This document shows, one piece after another, positions 7,825-64,000 of a stretch of 64,000 nucleotides of DNA. The stretch is from a virus. Lineage: Duplodnaviria > Caudoviricetes. A program made the translations under genes and the position numbers. The stretch lies in the IMG/VR virus record IMGVR_UViG_3300035507_000332. One strand, given 5' to 3'. Under the pieces are notes generated by a model, which did no database searches, was not told where the DNA came from, and saw only the letters and a program-made list of their open reading frames with translations. Numbering within the stretch: the stretch's first letter is position 1; every line of letters begins with the position of its first letter.

Positions 7825-9081
7825 TTAGATATCTTCGTCGTCACCATCAACCGTAGCGGCGGCAGTATTAGTAGCCTTAGCTTCGATTTCAGAGTAACAG
7901 AACACACCGTTTTCAGTATCGGTACGGCTACCGATCTGAGTTTCAAGCGTAAGAGAAGCCGTGGTGTTCTGACCGATAGAAGAGTTAAAGGACTGTTCAG
8001 AGATGGTGCAGTTCTTAACCTTGTATTCGAGAGCGACCTTGGTCTTGTCCTTTGGATTCTTCACGGAGATGATAACATCAACCTTGGGGTTCTCTTCCAA
8101 GATTTCAGAGAGAGACGTGCCAGAGTTGATGCCGTTCATGATAGCTTCGATCTGAACAGAAACCGTCAGAGGGAAGGTAATAGAACGAGCGTAGAAGAAA
8201 CGAGTACCAAGCTTTTGCAAACCTTCACGAGACATAGGAATCGAGATGTTTGCGCTCTGGATGTACGAGCCAGTATCCTTCAGCTGAGCGAAGTCGATAA
8301 GGGTAGCTTCTTGTTCATCGGTCGTGCCGTGCTTCAAAAGCTTAACCGTAACGTCGCCAGGACGAAGGGCAGAAATTTCAGGGCTTTCCGTATCATAGTA
8401 CTTTTGGAAAGTGTTAAGCTGAATTTCCGTAGTGTTAGGTTCGCCAGTAGCCAAGTCAACGTCAGGCATGGTGGTCTTGACTTCGACTTCGTCGTCGCCA
8501 GCTTCGATAAGAACGGCGTTGGTATTAGAGCCTTCAAAAGAAACAGATGCGGTTGGGAATTCACCCACAGCAAAGTTCATAGAGAAGTCAGTAATGTTCA
8601 TACCACCGTAACCGAGGACAGCCACGTTACTAGTAGAGCCAGCAGCCAAGCTCCAAGGCTTAACGTCGGCAAACTTAAATTGGTTCGTATCTTCACCTTC
8701 TTCAGCGATAGCAGAGAAGATGTCGAGGCCAGTGGAAGTATCTTCCAAGTGGCCACCAAGGAAAGAGTCATTCTTGTCCCAAGTACCGTCTTCACCCTTA
8801 GTACCACGGTTTACAACGAAGTTAAGAGCTTCTTCGTTAAAACCTTCAGAGAGGTAGTATTCAGTAGAAGCGGAGACCGTAGGAGCTTCCAAGTTAATAC
8901 GGTCGATAGCAGCGAGCTGACCGAATTCGTTAATATCTTGGAAGGAAATGCTGTTCGTCGATTGGAAAGACTGAACACGATAGAGCTGTTGAAGAGCTTC
9001 TTCTGGATTTTCTGCGGAAGCAGGAACAACCTGAAGCCCGATGCTCTGATAAATCAAACGATTACGCTTGTGTTTTGCCAT
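7825..9081 (-). CDS. major tail (tube-like) protein
   Basis: RNRLIYQS...LYRVQS...INEFGQLAAIDR..LEAPTVS pattern; two beta-rich halves; acidic. Confidence 0.65.
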   Translation of the reverse strand: MAKHKRNRLIYQSIGLQVVPASAENPEEALQQLYRVQSFQSTNSISFQDINEFGQLAAIDRINLEAPTVSASTEYYLSEGFNEEALNFVVNRGTKGEDGTWDKNDSFLGGHLEDTSTGLDIFSAIAEEGEDTNQFKFADVKPWSLAAGSTSNVAVLGYGGMNITDFSMNFAVGEFPTASVSFEGSNTNAVLIEAGDDEVEVKTTMPDVDLATGEPNTTEIQLNTFQKYYDTESPEISALRPGDVTVKLLKHGTTDEQEATLIDFAQLKDTGSYIQSANISIPMSREGLQKLGTRFFYARSITFPLTVSVQIEAIMNGINSGTSLSEILEENPKVDVIISVKNPKDKTKVALEYKVKNCTISEQSFNSSIGQNTTASLTLETQIGSRTDTENGVFCYSEIEAKATNTAAATVDGDDEDI

Positions 9082-10158: not shown

Positions 10159-11132
10159 ACAGAGACTTTAGATTTGCGCTCCTCCTAACCACCTACAAGC
10201 GGTTATGCGAGGGGCAACTTCAGATATTCAAGATGCTCAACCAGAGCTACGAGAATTTCCATTTATTCGTAGCTGTGAAGGGGTGCTCTGAATACGTATT
10301 CAACAAGAGTTGGCTTCCCTACTTTCAAAAGCACATCGACGAAGGGAAGCTAACTCTGCGTCGATTCCCTAACAAAAACCAAATGAGCAATTTGGTCGAT
10401 TGCGTGCGAGGACTAAACTTGCGAGGGTACGACTACTTTTGCAAGATCGACGACGACGATTTCTACGACGTCAACTACCTCAAGCGATGCAACGAAGCAG
10501 CCAACGAGAGCAACGGCAAAAACTTATTTTGGATGGACAGGTCGTGCCGTCTAGTTGTCAACAGGCACGACGATTTTTACCGCTTCAAAAAGAACACCCA
10601 GTGGAATTCTTACTGGGGGCCAACGCTTTGCGCAACAAGGTTTGTATGGCAGGAATACATGAACTTGGAAAATGGAGAGGAAGACTTGCCCACATACATT
10701 GGCAAGAACAACCTACCAGCGATGCCAAGGCATAAAGACTGCGGATTCCACGAAGACAAACTGCTCTACTCAATGATGAGAGCTTTTGGTGGGGTCTACA
10801 ATATTCGCAAGAATGGTATTCCCTACGTAATGTTCAACGAGAGCAATGCGTCAGTTACACGAGGGGGGTTTGTCAACGGTTGGTTCCAGACAGAAAACTT
10901 TGACGTAACTAAGTCCGAGCTAGCCGAAGAACAAATTTTTTATTGCAAGACCCCCGATTTTGAAGACGACGTACGAGTATTTATGGGGTACGCCTGGGGA
11001 GTAGCAAGCGGAGCAACAGGCAAGGTAATTAGTCTCACAGACACCGAGCTAGAAATCGACTGGGATAAATTCCTACCACAAAAATACATCCGACAAGAAG
11101 ACGGTTCTTGGTGGTCTGACGACCCGATTTAA
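10155..11132 (+). CDS. glycosyltransferase family 2, paralog of preceding gene
   Basis: LLTTYKR; KIDDDD; shared VKG.SE, NK.Q.SN..DC.R, GPT.C. Confidence 0.8.
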   Translation: MNRDFRFALLLTTYKRLCEGQLQIFKMLNQSYENFHLFVAVKGCSEYVFNKSWLPYFQKHIDEGKLTLRRFPNKNQMSNLVDCVRGLNLRGYDYFCKIDDDDFYDVNYLKRCNEAANESNGKNLFWMDRSCRLVVNRHDDFYRFKKNTQWNSYWGPTLCATRFVWQEYMNLENGEEDLPTYIGKNNLPAMPRHKDCGFHEDKLLYSMMRAFGGVYNIRKNGIPYVMFNESNASVTRGGFVNGWFQTENFDVTKSELAEEQIFYCKTPDFEDDVRVFMGYAWGVASGATGKVISLTDTELEIDWDKFLPQKYIRQEDGSWWSDDPI

Positions 11133-11153
11133 CAATCCTCGGTGTAAACTAAG

Positions 11154-11369
11154 ATGATGCACCGTAATTACAAGAAAGAGTTCCAGAGCCACATCCGAGG
11201 CCGCCTCACCAAAGACCAACGCAAAACCCTAATGCTCAGCAGAGAAGCAGATGCCGTGACGGCATTTGCCAAATTGTCTATTGCCGAGCAAACACAAGTT
11301 GTTAGAGACTTAAAAGCCAAGGGTTTTGTGGCTCAAGCGGAATTCTTAGAGAAGAGAATCGGTGAGTAG
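11154..11369 (+). CDS. small basic hypothetical protein
   Basis: 71 aa, behind GGTGTAAA motif. Confidence 0.65.
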   Translation: MMHRNYKKEFQSHIRGRLTKDQRKTLMLSREADAVTAFAKLSIAEQTQVVRDLKAKGFVAQAEFLEKRIGE

Positions 11370-11391
11370 CAATCCAACAGGTTAGAGAAAG

Positions 11392-14300
11392 ATGTCGGAG
11401 TTTTCTTCAGTATATTATGTTGTACACCCATCCAAAGGGCTGATTCCGTTTTACGGAGATTTTGCGTCCAAGAAAGATATTCTTGACGCAATTGGTCAAC
11501 TTGGAGGGACGTTTAAGCCACTTGTCGTATCATCGTTGCCTGATGCAGGGGAGGATGGGTTCATTTATTTTGTACCTAATGGGGTAGATGCAGGGGACAA
11601 CCAACATAACGAGTACTTATATTTCAATGGGCGATGGGAGCTTATTGGGTCAACAGGAATCGACCTAACAGGCTTTGCCACTGAAGAAGCTCTGAACACG
11701 CATACGAGCAACTCATCCATTCACGTCACAGCAACCGACAGGAATAGATGGGACTCGAAACAAGACGCAGGGGACTACGCTACAAACACCGATCTAACGA
11801 CAGGGCTTGCTTCAAAGCAGGACGCAGGAGACTACGCCACCAACACGGCACTAACGACTGGGTTAGCTAAGAAGCAAGACGTCGGCGATTACGCCACAAA
11901 TACTGCTCTAAAAGAAGGTCTAGCCACCAAACAAGACGTCGGAGACTACGCCACAAATTCCGATCTCACCAGTGGGCTTGCGACGAAGGTAAACACAGCG
12001 GAATTTTCCACTCACACAAACAACGGAGATATCCACGTTACCCTCGACGACAAGAGCGTATGGAATTCCGCACCAACCAACTTAAAGCTACACACTGGAG
12101 ATTCTGACATCCACGTTACAGCGAAGGACAAAGCAAAGTGGAATGCGAAACAAGACGCAGGTGACTACGCCACCAACACCGCTCTAACCGAAGGATTAGC
12201 CACAAAGCAAGACGTCGGCGATTACGCCACGAATACGGCACTTACCGAAGGACTCGCCACGAAACAAGCTGTAGGAGACTACGCAACGAATACAGCTTTA
12301 ACAGAAGGGCTAGCCACCAAGCAAGACGTTGGCGATTATGCAACCAACGAAGCTTTGGCGACAGGTCTAGCCACGAAGCAAGATGCAGGTGATTACGCCA
12401 CAACCGACGAACTGACTACCCACACAGGCAACACGGTTATTCACGTCACACAAGAAGACCGAGACCGATGGGACGCAGGTTCAAATGAAGGAGTCGAAGC
12501 CTCAATTGCAGAAGTCTCAGCCAACCTAACCACACATACAGGTAATTCCGACATCCATGTCACAGCAGAAGACAAGGAAAAGTGGAATTCTTTGCCCACC
12601 CAGTTAGATGTAACTAACTCTGTTAATGACGCCAAAGCTTCTCTTCAGTCCGACTTGCTCACCCACACAGGGAACGCAGCGATTCACGTCACCACAGAAG
12701 ACAAAGCAATTTGGAACGCCAAGCAAGATGCAGGTGACTACGCCACGAACGACGCATTGACGGCAGGACTGGCTACCAAACAGGATGCAGGGAGCTATGC
12801 TACAACCGATGAATTGGCAAGCCATACAAGCGACACAGAAATCCACGTCACAGCAGAAGACAAAGCCCGATGGGACGCAGGCTCAAACGAAGGCGTAGAA
12901 GCGTCTATAAGCGAGGTCAAGGACTTTCTTGGCACTCACGTAGGCGACACGTCTATTCACGTCACCACGGACGAGAAAGACGCCTGGAACGCCAAGCAGG
13001 GAGCAATCTCAACCGTCAACGTATCCAAGAGCGATGACGCTTCATCAATTGCCGATGGAGCATTGAACGTCAACTTACCTACGGATTGGTTCACTCAAGC
13101 TGAGATCGACACAAGCGACTTCGTCACCTTAAGCGGAGACCAAACTATTACAGGGAACAAATTCCTCAAGGGTGGCGTTGCCGCTTATTCCGCTGTAATG
13201 TTCGTCAATTCCACGAGTTCAGGAGACGAAACGATTGGCAGTATTTATCCAAGCTCAACGTCATACCCATTTGTATTCCTCAAGCCTGCATACTTCAGTG
13301 GCACGCAAAACGTATTCAAGAACAACGTCATTGTCGGTGGGCAAGTAACAGCAGGAGCTGCTTCTATAGGAAACCTTGCCACAACAGGGTACGCCAAAAT
13401 TGGTACAGACTTGACAGTAGATGGCCACGCTACAATCAATGGGTTGGTCACTACCATCAATAGCCAAGACCTCTATCTTGACGGACATATTCACTTGTCA
13501 AGTTCTGGCGGTAAATTTATTGATGGACACTCTCTTTTCCGAGGCAGGGCTGAATTTTCAGGCTCGGTAGATATTGTCTCCGACACCAAGGTAAACGTCG
13601 ATAGTAGCTCTATCCTTACGGTTGCCAAGATGCAAACCGACACGGCGAAATTTACCTCAGATGAAATTTCCAACCAGGTAACCACCAAGAAGTACGTCGA
13701 TAGCAAGATCGACTATGAAGTAAACACTCCTAGGCAATTTGTTATTTCCAGAGCAGAGTCTTGGAGTTCAGTCGCAGGTTGGTATTCTCAAGGAGAAGGC
13801 TTTTTGAGTATTCCTGGAATCGACACAATCGACTGCTCCTTATACTCTTGCTCATCATGGGACGAAGCGTCGTTCTCCTTTACAACTCAGGGGAATTCCT
13901 CAATGTTGAGTTTGACGATTCCTGTGGGTACGAATTCTTCAGGGAGCACGAACAACGGCACGGTAACTTCAGGCAATTATGTAACGCTTGACACCGACCA
14001 GAATATTTCAGGGAACAAATTCTTTGATGGGCATGTTACTTTCCAAGGACCGTTCGTGGTTTTTGATGTAGACGACATTTCTTTCTCAGGGAGCGTATCA
14101 GTTCGAGACCTTGAAGTTAGAGGCTCTTCTAACTTCTACAGCCAAGCGAATTTTTCTGGAGATGTCAATATCCAAAGCACTGGAAGCTTAAAGAATTCTG
14201 GGAGTACATACCTCAATGGTTACAACAAAGTAAACGGTTGGACATACCTTAATAGCTACAACAGCGTAAACGGTTGGACTGACTTTTATTCAGCAGCTTC

Positions 14301-24951: not shown

Positions 24952-26304
24952 ATGAAGAAAAAGAAACAAAAGACGGCGCAACTGCCGCAAGTGTTCGATA
25001 CAGAAGACGGCAAGAGATTATTACAAGCCTTCAGAGCAGGTAAAAACATCTTCTTGACAGGGTGTGGCGGTACAGGCAAGTCCTACCTCACCCGAAAACT
25101 CATCACCCATTGTGAGCCAGATACGTACGCAATCTCTGCCTCAACAGGGATTGCCGCAGTAAACATTGATGGGAAGACCTTGCACAAAACGCTAGGCATA
25201 GGCATTGGTCCGAAGAAAGACGAGACCTTCGAGAAATTTGAAGAATGGCTAGAAACTGGACCGATGAAGCGACGTCACTTGGCAGTCGTCAAGAGATTCA
25301 AGCACAGGCACATATTGTTTATCGACGAAATTTCCATGGTAGACGAACGACTGTTCGACTTTGTGGAATTCCGCTTGCGAAAGATAAAAGGCAACGACCT
25401 ACCCTTTGGAGGGATTCAGCTAGTAGTCATTGGCGACTTCCTACAACTTGAGCCAGTAGAAAAGAATCTCCTAGAGCCAAGATTTGCTTTTGAATCTCAG
25501 GCGTGGAAGAAGGCAAACTTCGAGACCATTTACCTGAAGAAAGTTTTCCGCCAAGAAGACAAAGCTTTTGTCGAACTCCTCGCACGAGTACGCACAGGCG
25601 AACAGACGCCACAAGACATCGAGAAACTCTCCTCACGGATAAAAGACGCCAAAGACGCCTCAGTAACACGAGTATTGACTCACAACGAAATGGTCAACCG
25701 TTACAACAAGGCACAGCTAGAGAAAATCGACAAGCCCATTAAAACCTTCACAGCGGACATCGTAGGAGGTACAGAAGACCAACGCAACGAACTCATCCGC
25801 AACGTCCTTTCTCCCGACGTTCTGACACTCAAAGAAGGTGCAAAGGTAATGTTCACAGCCAACTCCCCGAAAGACAAATTCTTCAACGGAGAAATTGGCT
25901 ACATCGAGTCAATGAAAGACTCAGAAACGACAGGTCTACTAGAAGAAACAGCTGTATTGGTGAGACGAGAAGGAGATAAAAATCCAGTACGAGTTGAGCC
26001 TTACACATGGTACGCCGACAGAGAAGATCCACGAGCCGCCAGAATGACTCAAATTCCGCTTCGTTTAGCCTATGCGGTAACAGTCCACAAGAGCCAAGGA
26101 GTCACCCTCAAAGAAGCCCACGTAGACATTTCCCGATGCTTTGCCAGAGGACAAGCTTACGTAGCCTTATCACGAGTCACAGGACTTGACGGATTGACGC
26201 TAGAAGAGTTCAGTCCGAACGTCATCCGCACCCACAGAAAGTGCGTAGAATTCTACAAAACATTGGACGCTCAGTACTCCAGACCACAAGATGTGGTAGC
26301 ATGA
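24952..26304 (+). CDS. Pif1/RecD-like SF1B helicase
   Basis: GCGGTGKS, IDEISM, GDFLQL, FRQED, AYAVTVHKSQG, GQAYVALSR. Confidence 0.93.
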   Translation: MKKKKQKTAQLPQVFDTEDGKRLLQAFRAGKNIFLTGCGGTGKSYLTRKLITHCEPDTYAISASTGIAAVNIDGKTLHKTLGIGIGPKKDETFEKFEEWLETGPMKRRHLAVVKRFKHRHILFIDEISMVDERLFDFVEFRLRKIKGNDLPFGGIQLVVIGDFLQLEPVEKNLLEPRFAFESQAWKKANFETIYLKKVFRQEDKAFVELLARVRTGEQTPQDIEKLSSRIKDAKDASVTRVLTHNEMVNRYNKAQLEKIDKPIKTFTADIVGGTEDQRNELIRNVLSPDVLTLKEGAKVMFTANSPKDKFFNGEIGYIESMKDSETTGLLEETAVLVRREGDKNPVRVEPYTWYADREDPRAARMTQIPLRLAYAVTVHKSQGVTLKEAHVDISRCFARGQAYVALSRVTGLDGLTLEEFSPNVIRTHRKCVEFYKTLDAQYSRPQDVVA

Positions 26305-26323
26305 AAATTTTTTTAGAAAAAAG

Positions 26324-26352
26324 TTGACGTTTCAAGGCGGATGTCATATAAT
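26324..26352 (+). promoter_or_regulatory. sigma70 early-type promoter followed by 5' hairpin
   Basis: TTGACG-17-TATAAT then GTTGACAGGGAAAGCATCCCTTG. Confidence 0.85.
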
Positions 26353-26415
26353 ACGCAACGTTGACAGGGAAAGCATCCCTTGAAACAAATCGTCCAAATC
26401 AAACCAAGTCCTACC

Positions 26416-27114
26416 ATGATGACTGCCTCCGAAAGAGAAAAGTACCTCGCCGATAAGCTCGCAACCGCTATCTCCCTCGACCCAAGCGTTAAAGAAGCTT
26501 ACGACTACATTGAATCCCGAAAGGAACTTCGCCGCGAAAACCCAGAAGACTCCTACCTTGCACGAGAAGAGCAAGAATTCCAGAACATCACCGACAAGGT
26601 GCTCAGTGGCTTCTCCCTCTACGACGAACCTGCAAAATTCGGAGAATACTACAAGTTGGCCGCCTACATCCGAGAACGCATCGCCGCTTGCATCTGGCGT
26701 CACGGAATCACCAGTGGATATACCATGGTTGTCCGTGGCGAAATCGCCAAACACCTCATCGAGCTTGGCTACGACACAGCCGAGAACGACTTCTACGACA
26801 TGGGGCTAGTTGGAATCCCAACCGACGCCGAAGAATTCTCTCTCTGCAACGTATGCCGAGGAGTGGAACTCCACGAAGACCACACCCGAGCAGCAAGACA
26901 CGCTGTTGAAGTCATGAAGCCATGGAACAGGAACGTTCCAGACTTTACCGATAAGCTCTACACGCTCGCCAAGCTTGAAATGATGAACGGCATCCGCAAT
27001 CATAAGAACCGTGCGCTCGCCGAACTCGAAGTCCAGGGCAAGATTGTCGAAATCGCCCAGGAGTTAGCACCTGCGGACGCCTTCGACGGAGACCTTGTTT
27101 TCAAGAAAGCCTAA
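26416..27114 (+). CDS. hypothetical protein
   Basis: Start moved to ATG 26416 downstream of hairpin. Confidence 0.75.
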   Translation: MMTASEREKYLADKLATAISLDPSVKEAYDYIESRKELRRENPEDSYLAREEQEFQNITDKVLSGFSLYDEPAKFGEYYKLAAYIRERIAACIWRHGITSGYTMVVRGEIAKHLIELGYDTAENDFYDMGLVGIPTDAEEFSLCNVCRGVELHEDHTRAARHAVEVMKPWNRNVPDFTDKLYTLAKLEMMNGIRNHKNRALAELEVQGKIVEIAQELAPADAFDGDLVFKKA

Positions 27115-41243: not shown

Positions 41244-41906
41244 ATGAGTACCGCATACTTCGTCGGTTCGCTCGACCCGACCAACCTTACGCCATCAACT
41301 GGAATTCTCATCCACGAAAGCTTCATTGACTACTACAGGGAAGGCAAGAAGATCGCCCAGGTACACATCGGACGTTCTTGCAATCACTACCCTTGGTTGA
41401 ATACCGACAAACGAACTGATATCGTCAAGTGGGCGCATGTCGGCGAGTTATATTCTTCCAGAGTCTGGAGAGCTTGCCGTAATGGTGAACTCAACCTGAT
41501 CGACTTCTTGAGCAATGACCGATTCTGGGTGGACGAATCTCTGGTGGCTAACAAGAAGAACGCCTCGCCTGAAGATGTCAAGCAAAAGCGTCTGCTCAAA
41601 AAAAAGAAAAACAAACAAAATAAAAAGCTTGACAAACTCGCAGCTAAAGAGGAATTCTCCGACATGGACTCTCCATCTTGTCAAGAAATTTCTAACCAGG
41701 ACGACTTCACCCACGACCTCCTCGATGATGATTCTCTCGGCGTCCTCGCTGTCTGTCAGACTATCGACTTCCTCGACGACTCGCCCACCGACTACGCCAA
41801 GAAACTGAACGAAGCTCTCTCCAACTCCTCGCCCACTTCAACTTCTGTCCTCACCGACGATTTCATCATTGAAGATTTTTTCACTCCTGAGCAAAAAAAT
41901 TGTTGA
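41244..41906 (+). CDS. hypothetical protein with Lys-rich and acidic tracts
   Basis: 220 aa. Confidence 0.75.
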   Translation: MSTAYFVGSLDPTNLTPSTGILIHESFIDYYREGKKIAQVHIGRSCNHYPWLNTDKRTDIVKWAHVGELYSSRVWRACRNGELNLIDFLSNDRFWVDESLVANKKNASPEDVKQKRLLKKKKNKQNKKLDKLAAKEEFSDMDSPSCQEISNQDDFTHDLLDDDSLGVLAVCQTIDFLDDSPTDYAKKLNEALSNSSPTSTSVLTDDFIIEDFFTPEQKNC

Positions 41907-41931
41907 CTCCTGCGCCCGACTGCGCTATAAT
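41903..41931 (+). promoter_or_regulatory. sigma70 promoter of candidate sRNA-2
   Basis: TTGACT-17-TATAAT. Confidence 0.85.
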
Positions 41932-41936
41932 TCCGT

Positions 41937-42186
41937 CGTTCCAAATAGGAATGAGTTGAGGTCAACCCCAACGGTTTGCCTTTTCGTTCATAGTTCGTCT
42001 TTCCGTTGTCGGCTGAACTCCTCATTCTAATTAGCGAACGGTCTGTCGTCGAGAGACGGTGGTATCCATGATTGAATTGAGTTAAAGCAGGTCTCTTGCT
42101 TCTCGCTCGGATTCTCTGAAGGTTTTTATTGTTGTTTCTTTTCCCTTCTGTGAGTTCGGCTGAAGTAGGAGGCCTGTTTTATTTTT
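41937..42186 (+). ncRNA. candidate structured antisense RNA 2 (~250 nt)
   Basis: Two long hairpins with pyrimidine-rich loops, GAGA tetraloop hairpin, 19-bp closing stem with 4 G:U pairs then U-tract. Confidence 0.75.
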
Positions 42187-43548: not shown

Positions 43549-44034
43549 TTAGAAGCTTTCGTCTTTTGGATACTTACTCGCTCGCTCCTTCACTAAACGG
43601 TTGATGCTTTTGATGAGCTTGTAGTATTTCTTCCAAGTGACTTGAGTTTCATCATTGATGAAGTCGAACTTGGCAACCGTGCGGAATCCGAACTTGTCGT
43701 TCTTTTGGACTTTGCCAAGCATTGCGTATCCCTTGGTCACTTGGTGCTTGCCGTCTTGAGAAAGATTGAAGCTGAACTGAAAGAGTAGTTCCACAAAGCG
43801 GAAGTCCAGATAGTCCATATTGAAAAGCTTTTCCAAGTGGGACAAGTATTCAAAAACGATTGACTTGACGTCTTGACGGCTGAGATTCAGCTTGGGAAGA
43901 ACGGCTTCTGTTCTCTCTGCCACATCCAAGAATTCAAGGAGGCGGTTGAGGTGATAGCGAGTGATGAGCAGGTTTCCCTTCTCATCGGTGATTCCCTGAA
44001 GTGGGAAACGGCGGATATTTCTAGGGTCTTCCAT
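43549..44034 (-). CDS. early hypothetical protein
   Basis: Complete cassette. Confidence 0.8.
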   Translation of the reverse strand: MEDPRNIRRFPLQGITDEKGNLLITRYHLNRLLEFLDVAERTEAVLPKLNLSRQDVKSIVFEYLSHLEKLFNMDYLDFRFVELLFQFSFNLSQDGKHQVTKGYAMLGKVQKNDKFGFRTVAKFDFINDETQVTWKKYYKLIKSINRLVKERASKYPKDESF

Positions 44035-54930: not shown

Positions 54931-55680
54931 TTACTTCAGAACTCTTGACTTGTATTCACCAGTCAAGCGGTTTTGATTGTACCAGTGGTTCACGTTGAAG
55001 TTGTCAAGGCTCAGGGTGTGTTCCTTGGAAAACTTGCGAACTGGAAACTTGCCGTATCGACTTTCTCCCTTGTGGTTGATAACCCCTTGTGAAGCGAGAA
55101 TTTCCAGTGTCAAGGTAATTTCTTTGCTTCCTTGCGTTGTGGCGTTGTTCATGACTTCAGCAATCTTTGCCAGAATGGCGTTCACAGGGAAGCGTTCAAA
55201 ACTGTTCTTGACAATTGCGGAGGCGTCGCCGTACTGGACTCTCAGGCAGAAAGAAAAGTGTCCAAGTCCAAGTTCACGCAACTGTTCCTTGGCTAGCTTC
55301 AGCTCAAGCTGAACTTGTGTGCTAAAGTCACAGATGAATTTAGGACGCCAGTTTGTCAAACCGCCCATGATTTTAGCGTTGGCTTGGTCAACTTCAATTG
55401 CTTCTGGGTGTGAGCGCAGGTAGCGTTCCATCTCGAATCTGTCAAGGAATTTTTTGACAACTGGATTTCCTTTCTTGTCCAGAACTGGAATATTGTTTCT
55501 AAGGTCAAGTGTCCAGTAATACTTCTTACGACGAACAGGCGGAGAAAGTTTCTCAGCAGGTGAGGTCAAATCCTTTGCCGTTGTCAAGAGATTTTTTTTA
55601 GGAGCAGGTGAATCTGGAATCTCGAACTTGTCAGGGTGCGAGGTCATCAGGTCAAGAATATTGCGGTTGGGTGTGGTCAT
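54931..55680 (-). CDS. basic hypothetical protein
   Basis: Start moved to MTTPNR. Confidence 0.75.
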   Translation of the reverse strand: MTTPNRNILDLMTSHPDKFEIPDSPAPKKNLLTTAKDLTSPAEKLSPPVRRKKYYWTLDLRNNIPVLDKKGNPVVKKFLDRFEMERYLRSHPEAIEVDQANAKIMGGLTNWRPKFICDFSTQVQLELKLAKEQLRELGLGHFSFCLRVQYGDASAIVKNSFERFPVNAILAKIAEVMNNATTQGSKEITLTLEILASQGVINHKGESRYGKFPVRKFSKEHTLSLDNFNVNHWYNQNRLTGEYKSRVLK

Positions 55681-55708
55681 TGTGGTTGGTTGGTTAGAAG
55701 TTGGTGAA

Positions 55709-56506
55709 TCAGCGGTTGTTCTTCTTGAGGTTGGCGAAGTGGCGGAAGTACAGCATTTCTTGCTCATCTCGTATGTGCCAATTGCGCAGAATAGCCTTGT
55801 CTCGTTTGTATCCGTGCGAGGAGTAACAGTAGGCTTCAAGTGCGTAGGTCAGTTCACGGAGGGGCTCACAGTTGGCGAGGTTGATTCTAGTTCCTTGGTA
55901 CTGGGGCAGATCAGCCCTTACGATGTGGATTTCTGAAGCGCAGGGAACGAAGTCTAGGGATTCTAGTCTCTCAGGGTGTAGTTCATCTTTCAATTTGCGC
56001 AGTGGGCGTTCAGCGTCTGCCAACTGAAATTCTAAACCTTGGTTGTGGTAGCCCATTGAGGAGAATTCAGGGATTTCTAGCAGTGCGTTCAAATTCTCTT
56101 CAAAGCTCAGTCCAAAACAGAAAGCCCTTCTGTCCAGATTGTCGCAACGGTAGACAATTGTTTCTGGATTGCCGTCTTCAACGTAGCGGTACAGATCAGC
56201 GTCAGGGTTGAATGTCAAGAGAATTCTGTTCACCAGTCCGAAAAACTGTTGTGCCTTCTCAGGAGTACCAAGACAAGTTAGGCAGGCTAGTTCAGCAGGG
56301 GTGCGATCAGCGTTTCTCAGTACAGCGGAGTTTCTGCCGTTGTCTTCAGCGTTCAACCAGTCAAGCATTTCTCCTTCAAAACCCCATGCGTCTTTTCTGT
56401 CTTTGTCGAGGTGTACCAAGCGGTACTTGTCAAGCAAAAACTTCTGTTCTTCTGGGGTGAGGTCATGGACTGATTCCAGTTCAGCGAGTGCGGTTTCTTT
56501 TCTCAT
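55709..56506 (-). CDS. hypothetical protein
   Basis: 265 aa behind TTGACA-16-TATAAT. Confidence 0.8.
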   Translation of the reverse strand: MRKETALAELESVHDLTPEEQKFLLDKYRLVHLDKDRKDAWGFEGEMLDWLNAEDNGRNSAVLRNADRTPAELACLTCLGTPEKAQQFFGLVNRILLTFNPDADLYRYVEDGNPETIVYRCDNLDRRAFCFGLSFEENLNALLEIPEFSSMGYHNQGLEFQLADAERPLRKLKDELHPERLESLDFVPCASEIHIVRADLPQYQGTRINLANCEPLRELTYALEAYCYSSHGYKRDKAILRNWHIRDEQEMLYFRHFANLKKNNR

Positions 56507-56650
56507 AGCGGTTGATTTGTGCCACTCATTATAAGAATAAAATTCAAAATGTCAACAACAAAATGATAATTTTTCAGAAAACCGCAGTCGGCGGTATCGA
56601 AGAACGGCACAGATCAACAACGTCAGAAATTTCTTTTCCCCACAGGTCAA

Positions 56651-56837
56651 GAATTCCCTGCAAATTTTTATGCGCCCAAATAGAGGCAAAAACCCCTGGG
56701 AATTTTTAGAAAGCCCAAATACAGTACACGTGCGCCGTGCGCACGTGATGAAAAGGGAGGTGCGTATATAGTAGGGGGTGGGTGCGCTCGGTCGGGGTCG
56801 GGTCGGGGCTGTTTATAAAATTTTATAAAAATTTTAT
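56651..56837. repeat. boundary element copy + TTTATAAAATTTTATAAA palindrome
   Basis: Matches 42582-42690. Confidence 0.9.
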
Positions 56838-57004
56838 GTGCGAGGTGTTCGAGCTGACAAGTTGATAAAGTGCATTACTCACTCACTCGGTTGATTCACT
56901 TCCTGACGTCATTTTGTGGCTTCAGTTTGTGGCGTCATTTTGTTTCCTGATGAAGTCATGCGGTATTTCCTGACGTCATTTTGTGGCACGTCATTTTGCG
57001 GTAT

Positions 57005-57020
57005 TGTTCCACGTGGAACA
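57005..57020. promoter_or_regulatory. parS site (ParB-binding palindrome)
   Basis: TGTTCCACGTGGAACA, perfect 16-bp palindrome. Confidence 0.85.
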
Positions 57021-57600
57021 TTCAATTTTTAGAGCGTGGAATTTTTTGCTTGACGTGGTGAGTATTTTGTGCGTACCGTGTTTTCTTCCTTTCGTCATTT
57101 TGTGGGGAAGCTGTCAAGTGAATTCGTCATTCAGGCGTGAAAAAATTATTTTGCGCAATGACATAAAAAACTATTGACAACTTGAAAGAAAAATGCTTCA
57201 CGTGCGCACGTGCGAGCTTGCAGCACGGCTCGAAAATCGAAATTTTGGCACTGTCTGACGTCACCAGATTGTCACCACAATTGAACGGTTGATGTGTCGA
57301 TTGATTGCACGCTTGCGTGCGTGCGTATGCGTGCGTACGTGCATGATTGCGCACGTGCATGATTGCGCACGTGAGAGAGTCCCCAGATAGAATCCCAGAA
57401 TAGCACCTTGGAACTAGATTGCCATCATTTGCCCCAGAATTGCCCTTAAATCATGCCCTTACTGTCCACGTGGGCACTTACTAAGCCCAGACGTCAAAAC
57501 GAGCTTCTAGGGGCATTTTTGGGGCATTTTGCATTTTGGGCGTTATCTGAGGGCAAAAAAAATACCCCTCGGATTTCTCCGAGGGGTGAGGGGTGAGGGT

Positions 57601-58035
57601 TTATTTCTCGAACTTTTCAATAGCTAGCTTGATTCGTTGCAAGTCCGTATCTTCTCCCCAGGATTCGTTGTAGATCTCATAGGGTGAGTCGGATTCGTAC
57701 CATCTTTCTTCCCCTTCTCCGTAGGCATAGGATACGTAGCACGTGTCGTCATAGTATCTGTTGCTTTCTTCGTTAACGCTCGAGAGCCATTCAAGTTCCT
57801 TGTCGTCTTCTTCGTTTGCGCCCATGAGGTGGAAGCACTTTACGATGTCGGCGAACTTGTTGTAGATGTCCTTGAGTTCGTCAGCTGTAAGCTCTTCGTT
57901 GTCAAGGATGAAGTCTGCCATCTCGTTGACTTTATCGGCTTGCTCTTCGTTCGTCTTCTTGCTATTGCAAGCGTAGGCGAAAGCGTCAAGGATGAGGTCT
58001 CGGAGGTCGGCGGTGTAGGATTCGGATTCGTTCAT
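57601..58035 (-). CDS. highly acidic early protein
   Basis: Start moved to MNESES; very D/E rich. Confidence 0.8.
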   Translation of the reverse strand: MNESESYTADLRDLILDAFAYACNSKKTNEEQADKVNEMADFILDNEELTADELKDIYNKFADIVKCFHLMGANEEDDKELEWLSSVNEESNRYYDDTCYVSYAYGEGEERWYESDSPYEIYNESWGEDTDLQRIKLAIEKFEK

Positions 58036-58338
58036 AATTCGTGTGCCCTTGTTCGTGGGCGATGGGCATATTATAAGCGATTCCAGTGTTTCAGTCAATA
58101 ACTTTTTAGTATTTTCTACAACTTTTTTTTGTGAGGGTGCGGAATCCCTTATTTTTCAAGGGTTTAAGGGCACGAAATTTTTTGAGGGGTATTTCTCAAA
58201 TTACCCCAGAACTGCCCTTGATGGGGGTATTTATCGAACTGATGGCAATCTTTCCAGGGGTGCGGAATAACGCTCCTATTGATGAATTTCAGGGCAAAAA
58301 AATACCCCTTAGGGATTGCTCCCTAAGGGGTTGAATAT

Positions 58339-58779
58339 TTAGGCGATAGGTAGTTGGGCAAGTCGTCCGTTCACCTTTGCAGGGATGAGTTTCTTGCCGT
58401 TGTATTTGTCAAGCGGAAAGATTCTATCTGGCTTCTCGATATCGATTTTCTTAGTAGTTCCAAACGCTGTAAAGCGGTATTTGTAAATCCAAGAACATCC
58501 CTGAAACTCCTTGCCTAATTTTGTTTCTGGCATGTCGTATTCCATGCGGTGGATGAGGTCGTTATCATCCGCCATATAAACCACAATACAGCGTTTTTCG
58601 GTGTCGTATTCTCCGCTTTCACAGAAGAAATAGGAACAAGTCTTAGACTTAGTTTTGACCGTCCTTGAGCTGATGGCGATATTCCAACGGTAACGCTTGC
58701 CGTTGATAATGACGTTCTGAAAAACAGCGGTATCCCCTAGGGAATATTCGATTTTCTGGATGGTGTAGGAGCGCAACAT
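58339..58779 (-). CDS. early hypothetical protein
   Basis: Complete cassette. Confidence 0.8.
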   Translation of the reverse strand: MLRSYTIQKIEYSLGDTAVFQNVIINGKRYRWNIAISSRTVKTKSKTCSYFFCESGEYDTEKRCIVVYMADDNDLIHRMEYDMPETKLGKEFQGCSWIYKYRFTAFGTTKKIDIEKPDRIFPLDKYNGKKLIPAKVNGRLAQLPIA

Positions 58780-58957
58780 AGCGTTATTTCTTTTTGTGGT
58801 GATGAGGGAGCAACTTGTTCCCTCGTGACGTGCATAATTATATCAAAATGACTCACCAAGTCAACACAAAATTGAAAAAAGTGCAATTTAGCATTTTAGG
58901 CTTGACTTAGGGTAAAAAATACCCCTGAGGATTGCTCCCCAGGGGTGAATCTGTTGG

Positions 58958-59284
58958 TTAGTCGTTGGTCTCGAAATCCGAGGATATCCAGTGGGATTCT
59001 CCCTTATACCCAGGGGTGAATGGGAATCCATAGGAGAAGTTGACCCCCAGGGATAACGCTTGCTCGTGGATGGGGTTGATGAGGAGCTTCTCAAACTTCT
59101 CTACCTCTGCCGTGTCGTCCTTGGTGACTCCGTGCCAGAAGTAAACCGCCTTGCCGTTTACCGTGCTCATCTGTAGGGTTAATTCAGCGGTATTGCTGAG
59201 TTGATTGCGGACTTCGCAAAGCTGATTCGTAACTATTGCGCAGAGCTTCTTGAGGGTGTCGGTGGTGACTGAGTGCTTAGCCAT
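58958..59284 (-). CDS. early hypothetical protein
   Basis: Start moved to MAKHSV. Confidence 0.75.
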   Translation of the reverse strand: MAKHSVTTDTLKKLCAIVTNQLCEVRNQLSNTAELTLQMSTVNGKAVYFWHGVTKDDTAEVEKFEKLLINPIHEQALSLGVNFSYGFPFTPGYKGESHWISSDFETND

Positions 59285-59467
59285 GATGTGCGGAATTGAT
59301 TGTTGAATGCCCGATCTCGTGGGCGATGGGCGTATTATAGCGGAAGTCGTCCCCAGTGTCAACAACAAACTAGAAAAAAGTGCAATATTTGTTCTCTGAC
59401 GGCAAAAAAAGCATCCCCAGGGATTGCTCCCCAGGGACTTGAATTTTTAGGCTTGACAAGTTCGCTA

Positions 59468-59725
59468 TTACTTGCGCTTGGTGAATTTATAGATGGTATA
59501 GAATAACCATTCTTCTTTGATGTCACCCAGTGCGATGTTCTTTGGAGCACGTCCAGGAAATACCGAGAATGGAATTTTAGCCTTGACTTCCCAGATTTCA
59601 CCGTCCTGAGTTTCAACCCACCATCTGTAGAGGTGCGCCTGGTTGGCATCATCACGGAAAAACCAGCGTGCGTTTTCATTGATAGGTGACGAGATAGCCA
59701 GAATTTCGTAGTCGCTAGCGTCCAT
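59468..59725 (-). CDS. early hypothetical protein
   Basis: Start moved to MDASDY. Confidence 0.75.
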   Translation of the reverse strand: MDASDYEILAISSPINENARWFFRDDANQAHLYRWWVETQDGEIWEVKAKIPFSVFPGRAPKNIALGDIKEEWLFYTIYKFTKRK

Positions 59726-59920
59726 AGGATTGTTTCTTTTCTTCTTGTTTGGCGATGAGGGAAACACCGTGTCTCGCTCAATCACGTGCCATATTATACC
59801 CAGATTTTATGCCGTGTCAACAAAAAAAATGAAAAAAGTACAATATCCATTTTCTGACTTGACAAGATACTAGAAAAGTGCGTGCGGAAAAATACCCCTG
59901 CCGTGGAACTATTCCATCAG

Positions 59921-59936
59921 TGTTCCACGTGGAACA
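59921..59936. promoter_or_regulatory. parS site
   Basis: Second TGTTCCACGTGGAACA. Confidence 0.85.
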
Positions 59937-60176
59937 ATTTTGTCGGCGTGTCGTGCCTTCCTGTCCGTGCGTGTCCGTCCTGCCCTGCCACATCATCCAC
60001 CCATTATGCAAAAAATGATGTACCACAAAACACTGACCCATTACCTAAAATCAACACCCAATTTTTCAACTGCCCCATTACCGAAATGCAAGCTCTAATT
60101 TTTCAAAATGCGCACTCATTTTTGAACTCCGAGATATCTTGAGTTGAGAACCCGATTTTTGAATTCCGAGGGCGAT

Positions 60177-60282
60177 TTTTATAAAATTTTATAAGCCAAA
60201 AAACCCTGGGAATTTTTCAAAAGCCCAAATACGGTTTCGTGCGCCCGAGCGCACGTGAGCCGAAGGGAGGTGCGTATATAGT
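60177..60282. repeat. boundary element copy
   Basis: AT palindrome then AAAAACCCTGGGAATTTTT...AAGGGAGGTGCGTATATAGT. Confidence 0.9.
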
Positions 60283-60803
60283 ATTCTCGCCGAGCCGTTT
60301 TTCAGTATTGTTGACTGCGACGGTTTAGATTTAATTTGAGGTTGTTTTTGTGCTGGCTAGATCGTCCCAAAATGACGTTTTTTTGCACCCTAAAAATTGT
60401 CTTCCTGGCAATCACTTTTTGCACTTCCACAACGTCGATTTTTTTACCCCCAAAATGACGCCCAAAATGACGGCATGAAAAAATTGTGTGGGGTGATGTG
60501 GGAAGTCATGCGTAACGTCATTTTTAGAGCTGTAACCTAAACTGAGTTACAGCGTAAAAATCAGAGTGCCGACAGCTAGCCATCTTTCTTGCCCAAAAAG
60601 TGCCGTTCTCTGATTTCGCCCAAAAATGCCCCTAGAACAGCGTTTTGAACGTTGGGCTTAACGAGTGACCGCCCGGACAGCAAGGACACGTTTTAGACCT
60701 ATTTCTGAGCCAAATTTCGGATTTCTGAAAAAGCTGCGGAATCACACATCCAAAAAAAAGGCACTCCCGAAGGAGTGCCTGAGCGTCATTTTGTGGGGAT
60801 GAC

Positions 60804-62028: not shown

Positions 62029-62248
62029 GAATTCCCTGCAAATTTTTACGTGCCCAAATACGCTCTTTTTCATATTGCCAAAATTCCCCTGGGAATTTTT
62101 TAGAAGCCCTAAATAACACGCAGGCGTGCGCCCAGCGCACGTGCGCAGAAGGGAGGTGCGTATTCAGTATGGGAAAATTTTATAAAATTTTATGTCTTGC
62201 GACATAAAATTTCATTTCTATGAATTTTATAGTAAATTTATAAATTTA
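62029..62248. repeat. boundary element copy with AT-rich palindromes
   Basis: Same layout as 56651-56837. Confidence 0.9.
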
Positions 62249-62388
62249 CGACAGGCGACAGGACGAGCGACAGGCGACAGGACGAGCGACAGGCGACAGG
62301 ACGAGCGACAGGCGACAGGACGAGCGACAGGCGACAGGACGAGCGACAGGCGACAGGACGAGCGACAGGCGACAGGACGAGCGACAGG
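62249..62388. repeat. 19-bp tandem repeat (CGACAGGCGACAGGACGAG)x7.4
   Basis: Perfect copies. Confidence 0.97.
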
Positions 62389-62434
62389 AAGACAAAAAGA
62401 AAGGGCACTGTCACCAGTGCCCTTTCTGCTTTTT

Positions 62435-63720: not shown

Positions 63721-63874
63721 AATTTGATGTGTCGTTTGTTCTGACGACAAGGCAAGACTAGTATATCTTTTTTCTCTCGTCAAATAAATTTCGTATCTTT
63801 TCATCACTTTTCTTTCTCTCACTCTCGAAAGTAGTTTGTTTTTAGTGAGTTATGGAGAGAAAAAAATTTCACTT

Positions 63875-64000
63875 CCTGGCAACGTGACGCCCTGGCAACG
63901 TGACGCCCTGGCAACGTGACGCCCTGGCAACGTGACGCCCTGGCAACGTGACGCCCTGGCAACGTGACGCCCTGGCAACGTGACGCCCTGGCAACGTGAC
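63875..64000. repeat. 16-bp tandem repeat (CCTGGCAACGTGACGC)x>=7.9, runs off window
   Basis: Perfect copies. Confidence 0.97.

Follow-up and report, generated by a model that had tools for sequence, protein, structure and literature searches.

Two perfect palindromes in the early-type region of a phage genome raise the question of which protein reads them, and to what end. In the window, by which we mean the whole 64-kb stretch of phage DNA that was analysed, the 16-bp palindrome TGTTCCACGTGGAACA occurs in two exact copies, at 57005-57020 and 59921-59936. A preliminary description of this DNA had reported two perfect palindromes, both intergenic and together flanking four cassettes, and all of this was confirmed. 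When up to three mismatches were allowed, the only further match was at 43829, with three mismatches. Since ~1.5e-5 exact copies of one such 16-mer are expected by chance per 64 kb, the presence of two copies is not a chance event.

Arrangement of the locus

The two sites, which are 2.9 kb apart, and the elements around them were located as follows.

54931..55767, minus strand: conserved neighbour gene of 278 aa, by which the parS of the relative G234 was placed in synteny
56556..57563, no strand: left spacer, with parS-1, a boundary module, a repeat array and GCGCACGTG repeats
57005..57020, no strand: parS-1, perfect 16-bp palindrome TGTTCCACGTGGAACA, intergenic
57601..58035, minus strand: cassette gene 1, 144 aa, very acidic, without family match
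58339..58779, minus strand: cassette gene 2, 146 aa, without family match
58958..59284, minus strand: cassette gene 3, 108 aa, without family match
59468..59725, minus strand: cassette gene 4, 85 aa
59821..60758, no strand: right spacer, with parS-2, a boundary module and inverted ACGTCATTTTGTGG copies
59903..59909, no strand: extra exact half-site GTGGAAC, 11 nt left of parS-2
59921..59936, no strand: parS-2, perfect 16-bp palindrome TGTTCCACGTGGAACA, intergenic

The left spacer (~1000 nt) extends between a terminator (57587-57564) and a promoter (56555-56528), the right spacer measures ~940 nt, and no promoter-to-terminator unit was predicted in either of them. parS-1 is embedded in an array of ACGTCATTTTGTGG repeats (families D6 and D10), ~228 nt to the right of a boundary module (56684-56777). 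parS-2 lies ~100 nt upstream of the -35 element of a promoter (59820-59793) and ~234-258 nt to the left of another boundary module (60170-60287). Between the sites, each of the four minus-strand cassettes consists of a TTGAC(A/T)-16/17-TATAAT promoter, a gene and a strong hairpin terminator, and the region that holds the two sites is of an early type that would be transcribed by the host RNA polymerase. Two of the four cassette genes have start regions with unusual complementarity to an RNA at 41903-42186; the earlier claim of three sRNA-2 target genes in this block thus held for two of the four genes only.

Several other properties of the locus were examined. The palindromes were rejected as plus-strand terminators, their stems being 6 bp versus 10-12 bp in the real terminators of the phage, and an enrichment of half-sites in the window was also rejected (13 found versus 7.9 expected). 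CACGTG was over-represented in both spacers, in other repeat contexts as well (26 found versus 11 expected). The conserved neighbour gene has homologues in G234 (10803-11378) and on a host contig (G172:C19, 1954-2622); its family comprised just four clusters among 1.84 billion representative proteins, had no Pfam hit, and yielded nothing as a clue to function.

The palindromes match the parS of the probable host

TGTTCCACGTGGAACA matches the parS consensus tGTTNCACGTGNAACa, a 16-bp palindrome, and is identical to parS2 and parS3 of P. aeruginosa, the highest-affinity ParB sites (PMC4368675). Pseudomonas and some Bacteroidota use the same parS variant as the phage. The phage itself probably infects Akkermansia, a gut bacterium. 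The host group was anchored on an Akkermansiaceae MAG found by the AM1 (Akkermansia) 16S primer site. The phage helicase was 75% identical to a gene of an Akkermansia-genus MAG, and a chromosomal contig of that MAG carries, side by side, homologues of two adjacent phage early genes with 40-45% identity; the host assignment is an indirect one. The comparison with host parS sites, which had been proposed as a check, found the exact 16-mer in 107 of the 154 Akkermansia-type genus genomes, with 1-4 copies each on one contig, and the reversed control in none (0/154). At the family level, 73 of 81 genomes carried the 16-mer at ≤1 mismatch. The host clusters were origin-proximal, in or beside gidA, holA, ribD and dnaN, and the listed spacings of host sites ranged from ~0.08 to 4.5 kb, with many values close to 3.2 kb. 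Judged by this identity with both the Pseudomonas sites and the origin-proximal parS of the host clade, the phage 16-mer is a genuine chromosomal parS sequence, as its fit to the consensus had led the preliminary description to claim.

The proteins that read and move such sites were present in the host group. A canonical ParB was found in one region in each of the three Akkermansia-type genomes checked, with ParB_N and HTH_ParB in all three regions and ParB_C in the two cleanly called proteins, and the ParA of these genomes was Soj-like and 256 aa long. The suggestion that SMC would be loaded as well found no support: two SMC models gave nothing significant in the three genomes, and a published survey found A. 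muciniphila to be without a condensin homologue (PMC10197239).

A match to parS may still mislead if the palindromes are not ParB sites in vivo, and are instead CACGTG-core palindromes for another phage or host factor, recombination scars or passenger host DNA. The CACGTG enrichment in other spacer repeats, such as GCGCACGTG, leaves room for another CACGTG-reading protein, and a further 10 of 11 bases on the right flank of parS-2 agree with one host parS locus, a hint that the site was captured from host DNA. However, homology between the phage sites and host DNA ends at ~27-31 nt, and both phage sites are perfect, whereas many host sites have one mismatch. A 6-bp core is also insufficient to account for a 16/16 match to host parS that occurs twice here and once more in a relative of very different base composition. 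Moreover, a permuted palindrome with the same core (TTGTCCACGTGGACAA) was >100 times rarer in viral contigs than the 16-mer. We consider it highly unlikely that these are not ParB sites. When positions 44-64 kb of the window were searched against 151 host-genus genomes, the CRISPR-spacer-like matches were the parS sites themselves and weak matches only.

The 16-mer was not confined to this phage. In IMG/VR, at least 120 viral contigs carried it, versus 3 and 1 for two composition-matched control palindromes, and most of the viral copies had no ParB gene in their vicinity, with intergenic positions favored. This enrichment suggests that the phenomenon may be general. We tentatively raise the possibility, on these sequence counts, that orphan host-type parS sites are widespread and overlooked phage cis-elements, well outside the phi29 family too. 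In hosts that do not sporulate, phages might thereby put their DNA under host ParA/ParB for positioning, inheritance of stalled infections or centromere takeover, with the Akkermansia-type lineage as a conserved example.

The sites lack linked partition genes and recur in a distant relative

The claimed absence of parAB from the window was upheld by phmmer and hmmsearch with Akkermansia-type ParB and ParA, which returned nothing at E≤10 among all ORFs of ≥40 aa. With two host-type ParB sites and no ParB gene in 64 kb, the phage therefore probably borrows the host machinery. In the ~144 kb of a distant relative, represented by contigs G226 and G234, searches for a ParB_N domain, for ParA or ParB and for a tyrosine integrase were likewise negative. 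None of the 154 host-genus genomes contained a conserved marker protein of the phage lineage (7825-9081 in the window); this speaks against life as a prophage, and the phage is probably virulent.

These searches bear on the alternative that the sites are read by a ParB-type protein encoded by the phage outside the window, in a self-contained partition system like P1 ParABS or N15 SopABC. There is room for such a gene, as at least ~46 kb of phage DNA lies beyond the window, and partition systems carried by plasmid-prophages are well established. However, neither ParA nor ParB was found in the window or in the ~144 kb of the relative, and elements with their own partition normally differ from the host in centromere type, which avoids incompatibility. 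The layout of consensus early cassettes, the integrase-free relative and a lineage not represented in host genomes also suggest virulence. We regard a phage-encoded reader as very unlikely.

The preliminary description had named conservation in relatives as a point on which its reading could fail, and the outcome was positive. One exact copy of the 16-mer was found at the syntenic early-region position of G234, a relative with a GC content of 32.5% in which the proteins common to both phages are collinear and 25-64% identical. This copy lies in an operon, within a 33-nt gap directly upstream of a gene; the small gene ~20 nt downstream of it is followed by the homologue of the conserved neighbour gene. 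Because the neighbour protein is only ~26% identical between the two phages, conservation of the 16-mer greatly exceeds that of the sequence around it. The local arrangement differs between the phages, since G234 has a single site, which is inside an operon and not in a spacer. Five large IMG/VR contigs related by helicase had no parS; one of the five, G226, is without the first 14.5 kb of its genome, and the overlapping contig G234 carries the site. Near-identical relatives were seen as proteins (P0001, 95%; P0002, 98%; P0122, 99%, on a 9,077-nt JGI contig). Neither the phage itself nor a close relative was found among GenBank phages, no close relative was found in IMG/VR with single proteins or an exact 37-mer, and a metagenome scan for relatives returned the same distant lineage only (contig UMFX01032794.1).

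Possible consequences of loading host ParB

With moderate confidence, we favor the explanation that the two 16-mers mimic the host centromere, offering high-affinity loading sites for host chromosomal ParB in the early-type region of a probably virulent phage. The ParB binding, spreading, ParA-driven movement and phage benefit that we infer would proceed as follows. Once phage DNA enters the cell, the palindromes would be bound by host ParB dimers, which with CTP would become sliding clamps and spread across the ~3-kb block and the spacers. The host Soj-like ParA would recognize the resulting partition complex, and phage genomes would be positioned on the nucleoid or divided between daughter cells, no longer being distributed at random. 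The benefit would be largest if lytic growth stalls in a slow-growing gut host (a carrier state), a non-sporulating counterpart of the phi29/Spo0J strategy. By analogy with phi29, positioning or inheritance is the most likely purpose of ParB loading, which would probably also titrate ParB and locally damp the four cassettes between the sites. One argument against centromere mimicry is that partition would seem of little use to a virulent phage whose infections are not often delayed.

Damping could also be the purpose itself. Host ParB may be recruited for gene control, its spreading serving to damp or insulate the four early cassettes and neighboring promoters as a brake that depends on the state of the host. 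The block that the sites enclose is indeed discrete, with repeated boundary modules as its limits, and the proximity of parS-2 to a consensus promoter (100 nt) and of the G234 site to an operon gene fits such a role. Promoters beside parS3/parS4 of P. aeruginosa are repressed by ParB excess, and a plasmid with a perfect parS is not maintained under ParB excess (PMC5521831, PMC4368675). However, ParB silencing around chromosomal parS is weak or absent in most species studied (PMC5521831). One would also expect strong transcription from consensus promoters to dislodge sliding clamps, and the position of the site relative to the promoter differs between the two phages. We rate gene control as rather unlikely to be what the sites are for.

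Titration can likewise be taken further, with the sites acting as a ParB decoy. Phage replication would then yield hundreds of perfect sites, which would draw ParB away from the 1-4 host sites and break up the partition complex at the origin; host chromosome segregation or the cell cycle would be upset, to the benefit of the phage. In number of perfect sites, one phage genome equals an entire host chromosome, and the host may depend more on ParABS because it is without a known condensin (PMC10197239). Yet nothing indicates that loss of ParB function helps a phage, 1-2 sites per genome are few for a sponge, and a decoy needs no particular position, although the site is syntenic in the relative. 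A decoy appears distinctly unlikely.

Comparison with known systems

If host ParB does load on these sites, ParABS hijacking would extend to a different phage lineage, to a different phylum that includes an abundant gut mucin degrader, and to a spore-free host. It would also imply another purpose, such as inheritance in a carrier state, placement within the cell, timing of early genes or a decoy for the centromere machinery, and the match between phage and host parS variants could serve as a host-prediction signal. To our knowledge, no phage besides phi29 and its relatives has been shown to use the host's own centromere sites, and our literature searches found no further case. We also know of no sporulation in Akkermansia.

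Like the present phage, P1 (ParAB-parS) and N15 (SopAB) carry centromere-like palindromes on the phage genome, and those of N15 are dispersed among phage genes. P1 and N15 encode their own ParA and ParB and have centromeres distinct from that of the host, whereas here the window has no ParA/ParB and the palindromes have the sequence of the host's own sites. The P. aeruginosa parS2 and parS3 sites share the identical 16 bp and are clustered within a few kb (PMC4368675), but they lie beside the chromosomal origin, whereas the sites described here are on a phage with no cognate parAB linked. SGI1 is also a mobile element that uses the ParAB of another replicon, in that it hijacks the parABS of its IncC helper plasmid; it is a genomic island exploiting a plasmid system (PMC10954446), whereas here a phage would exploit the system of the chromosome.

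The phi29 precedent cited in the preliminary description is real. phi29 has five parS sites, and Spo0J takes part in bringing the phage genome into the prespore (work cited in PMC2731898). The likeness probably lies in a virulent lifestyle and the lack of a ParB of its own (none in the 64-kb window here), together with several host-type parS copies through which the host segregation machinery would handle the phage genome. phi29 is a 19-kb, protein-primed phage of a spore-former, with spore entrapment and Spo0A repression as the benefit. In contrast, the phage described here is unrelated and >110 kb, and its host is probably a non-sporulating Verrucomicrobium without SMC; its two sites lie 2.9 kb apart in an early region, and nothing comparable to the spore stage is known in this case. 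If Akkermansia is non-sporulating, the mechanism would be common to both phages, and its purpose must differ.

parS sites of the window

A scan of the 64-kb window located the palindrome TGTTCCACGTGGAACA exactly at 57005-57020 (parS-1) and 59921-59936 (parS-2), with no further match at ≤2 mismatches anywhere in it. The chance expectation for an exact 16-mer palindrome was ~1.5e-5 per 64 kb, and the parS pair is real and non-random. The window, which derives from a large uncultured phage, carried plus-strand tail, glycosyltransferase, and helicase genes over its first ~42 kb and minus-strand cassettes over 42-64 kb. The preliminary description had reported two perfect, intergenic parS palindromes bracketing four cassettes, and each of these points was borne out. 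Both sites were located in ~1-kb spacers without a predicted promoter-to-terminator unit, and the four minus-strand units between them each had a promoter of the form TTGAC(A/T)-16/17-TATAAT together with a hairpin terminator of 10-12 bp. Each parS lay ~230-260 bp inward of one boundary module.

Features of the parS-bracketed block and its neighbors
54931-56506, minus strand: adjacent early genes with homologues on an Akkermansia-genus contig; no function assigned
56684-56828 and 60170-60287: directly repeated boundary modules marking the ends of the 3.5-kb block
57601-58035, minus strand: cassette gene 1, promoter-gene-terminator unit
58339-58779, minus strand: cassette gene 2, promoter-gene-terminator unit
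58958-59284, minus strand: cassette gene 3, promoter-gene-terminator unit
59468-59725, minus strand: cassette gene 4, promoter-gene-terminator unit

parS-1 was embedded in a ACGTCATTTTGTGG repeat array between terminator 57587-57564 and promoter 56555-56528, and parS-2 was 100 nt upstream of the -35 element of promoter 59820-59793. ParB bound at these sites might silence or insulate the flanked early cassettes, and promoters beside parS3/4 in Pseudomonas are indeed repressed by ParB excess (PMC5521831); we consider this role unlikely here.

Several repeats were observed around the block. The ACGTCATTTTGTGG repeats (56900-57105, 60444-60480, and 60783-60799) comprised 5-6 direct copies around parS-1 and, rightward of parS-2, further copies in inverted orientation; GCGCACGTG repeats occupied 57195-57385. 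CACGTG was enriched in the window (26 found versus 11 expected), mostly in the parS spacers. An imperfect 97-nt inverted repeat (57427-57523 versus 60619-60715, 73% complementary), accompanied by shorter inverted pairs, had one arm on each side of the parS-bracketed block. Two perfect tandem arrays were located between early cassettes, one with ~8 copies of a 19-nt unit (62230-62407) and the other with a 16-nt unit (63843-64000) continuing past the window end. The plus-strand RNA region 41903-42186 had perfect 10-nt and 12-nt complementarity to the start regions at 58035 (gene 1) and 59725 (gene 4), and 8 nt to that of gene 2; among 500 random 37-mers, complementarity of ≥10 nt occurred in 2.4% and of ≥12 nt in 0.2%.

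Comparison with parS sites of the probable host

TGTTCCACGTGGAACA matches P. aeruginosa parS2/parS3 in every letter; these perfect palindromes are the sites with the strongest ParB binding (PMC4368675). The host anchor genome was the Akkermansiaceae MAG G001, matched by the AM1 16S primer. When ≤1 mismatch was allowed, 73 of 81 genomes of its family had a site, usually 2-3 sites within 1-5 kb, with the reversed control near zero; TGTTCCACATGGAACA was the commonest host variant among the matches listed. Exact sites were present in 107/154 genomes of its genus (reversed control, 0/154), at 1-4 copies always on a single contig, and the window therefore holds as many perfect sites as a whole host chromosome. 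In sequence, the palindromes are thus of the genuine chromosomal parS type. The sites might instead serve as a decoy that draws away host ParB, a purpose that we regard as distinctly unlikely.

gidA and dnaN are classic origin-proximal genes, and in three Akkermansia-type genomes (G056, G066, and G231) the parS sites clustered in or adjoining them. The complete genome G056 had an exact parS inside gidA/mnmG and a one-mismatch parS just beyond dnaN, and both exact copies of the Akkermansia-genus MAG G172 were inside gidA. The 2.9-kb spacing of the phage sites fell inside the range seen for host clusters. Furthermore, the right flank of parS-2 (59921-59947, ATTTTGTCGGC) matched one orthologous host parS locus (ATTTTGTTGGC, L166/L167) at 10/11 bases (p roughly 0.01, multiple comparisons allowed for), a similarity that might be left over from the acquisition of host DNA.

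In each of the three host genomes checked, one ParB region with ParB_N and HTH_ParB was present; ParB_C was matched as well by the two proteins that could be called cleanly. In G056, ~1 Mb separated parB from the parS cluster and ~86 kb separated it from parA; a Soj-type ParA of 256 aa was found in host genomes. The preliminary proposal that SMC would also be recruited is unlikely in this host, since no SMC was found in the three host genomes with TIGR02168 or a hinge-domain model, in agreement with the report of ParABS homologues and no known condensin in A. muciniphila (PMC10197239).

Because Pseudomonas and some Bacteroidota share the parS variant (an Acidaminococcus genome had other variants), it does not by itself name the host. 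The Dda/PIF1-like helicase (24952-26304, plus strand) was 75% identical to 25675-26946 of a 30.9-kb contig (C13) of G172 that had no other gene in common with the phage, which looks like a single-gene exchange; named homologues at ~40% identity were mostly from Verrucomicrobiota. The adjacent early genes 55709-56506 (40% identity) and 54931-55767 (45% identity) had adjacent homologues in the same order on a G172 chromosomal contig (L239, 1080-2622) that also encodes secretin and SurA-type genes. Across 1.84 billion representative proteins, the 278-aa family of gene 54931-55767 formed only four clusters, and the neighboring 265-aa gene was an orphan whose known copies were all near-identical. 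The conserved phage-lineage marker protein (7825-9081) was absent from all 154 host-genus genomes, which argues against a prophage. We infer from these gene matches an Akkermansia-type host genus.

Recurrence of parS in viral contigs

Exact TGTTCCACGTGGAACA was present in at least 120 IMG/VR viral contigs, compared to 3 for the reversed palindrome ACAAGGTGCACCTTGT and 1 for TTGTCCACGTGGACAA, in which the core was kept and the outer bases permuted (composition-matched controls; loci L001-L120 and L256-L259). Among the matches listed, only 3/120 loci had a ParB-like ORF, none had origin genes of the gidA, dnaN, holA, or ribD type, and sites favored intergenic DNA (55% inside ORFs ≥100 aa, versus 78% for random positions). 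On these counts, orphan parS of the host type appears to be common in these contigs and under selection. That some different factor reads the sites, or that they are non-functional, is the least probable of the alternatives.

A distant relative was represented by two IMG/VR contigs, G226 (IMGVR_UViG_3300045988_183135, 173-kb record) and G234 (..._181608), with a GC content of 32.5% and ~20 collinear proteins 25-64% identical to those of the window. The label of G226, a complete genome with inverted terminal repeats, did not hold, in that the assembly contained a 43.5-kb inverted duplication and lacked the first 14.5 kb seen in G234; the true genome is probably ~144 kb or more. Within the stretch missing from G226, collinear with window 39-56 kb, G234 had one exact TGTTCCACGTGGAACA (11613-11628; chance expectation ~2e-5). 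This single site had a different local context from the window, in a 33-nt gap between 113-aa and 71-aa minus-strand ORFs, directly followed by a homologue of window gene 54931-55767 (best local match ~26% identical). The strongest indication that the 16-mer itself is under selection is its perfect preservation at a syntenic position, next to neighbors so diverged that they are barely recognizable.

A ParB encoded by the phage outside the window could read the sites. No window ORF resembled ParB or ParA, as the preliminary description had it, and the ~144-kb union of G226 and G234 had no ParB_N domain, ParA/ParB match, or tyrosine integrase; we find a phage ParB very improbable. Silencing, decoy, and phage ParB all keep a ParB or ParB-type reader and change the purpose.

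Relation to phage phi29

Judged by sequence, the most fitting description of the feature is a mimic of the host centromere. Host ParB would load at the two sites on incoming and replicating phage DNA and build a partition complex, which host ParA would then position or segregate; we favor this course as the likely one. By analogy with phi29, stalled infections would be inherited by both daughter cells. The phi29 precedent, already invoked in the preliminary description, is the one experimental case: five parS sites, acting together with host Spo0J, assist entry of the phi29 genome into the prespore while lytic growth is suppressed (PMC2731898). The window would extend a phi29-type strategy to a new phage lineage and a new host phylum, and the viral contigs hint at a wide occurrence. 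Whereas phi29 has five parS sites and a sporulating host, the window has two sites and the phage probably a non-sporulating gut host.
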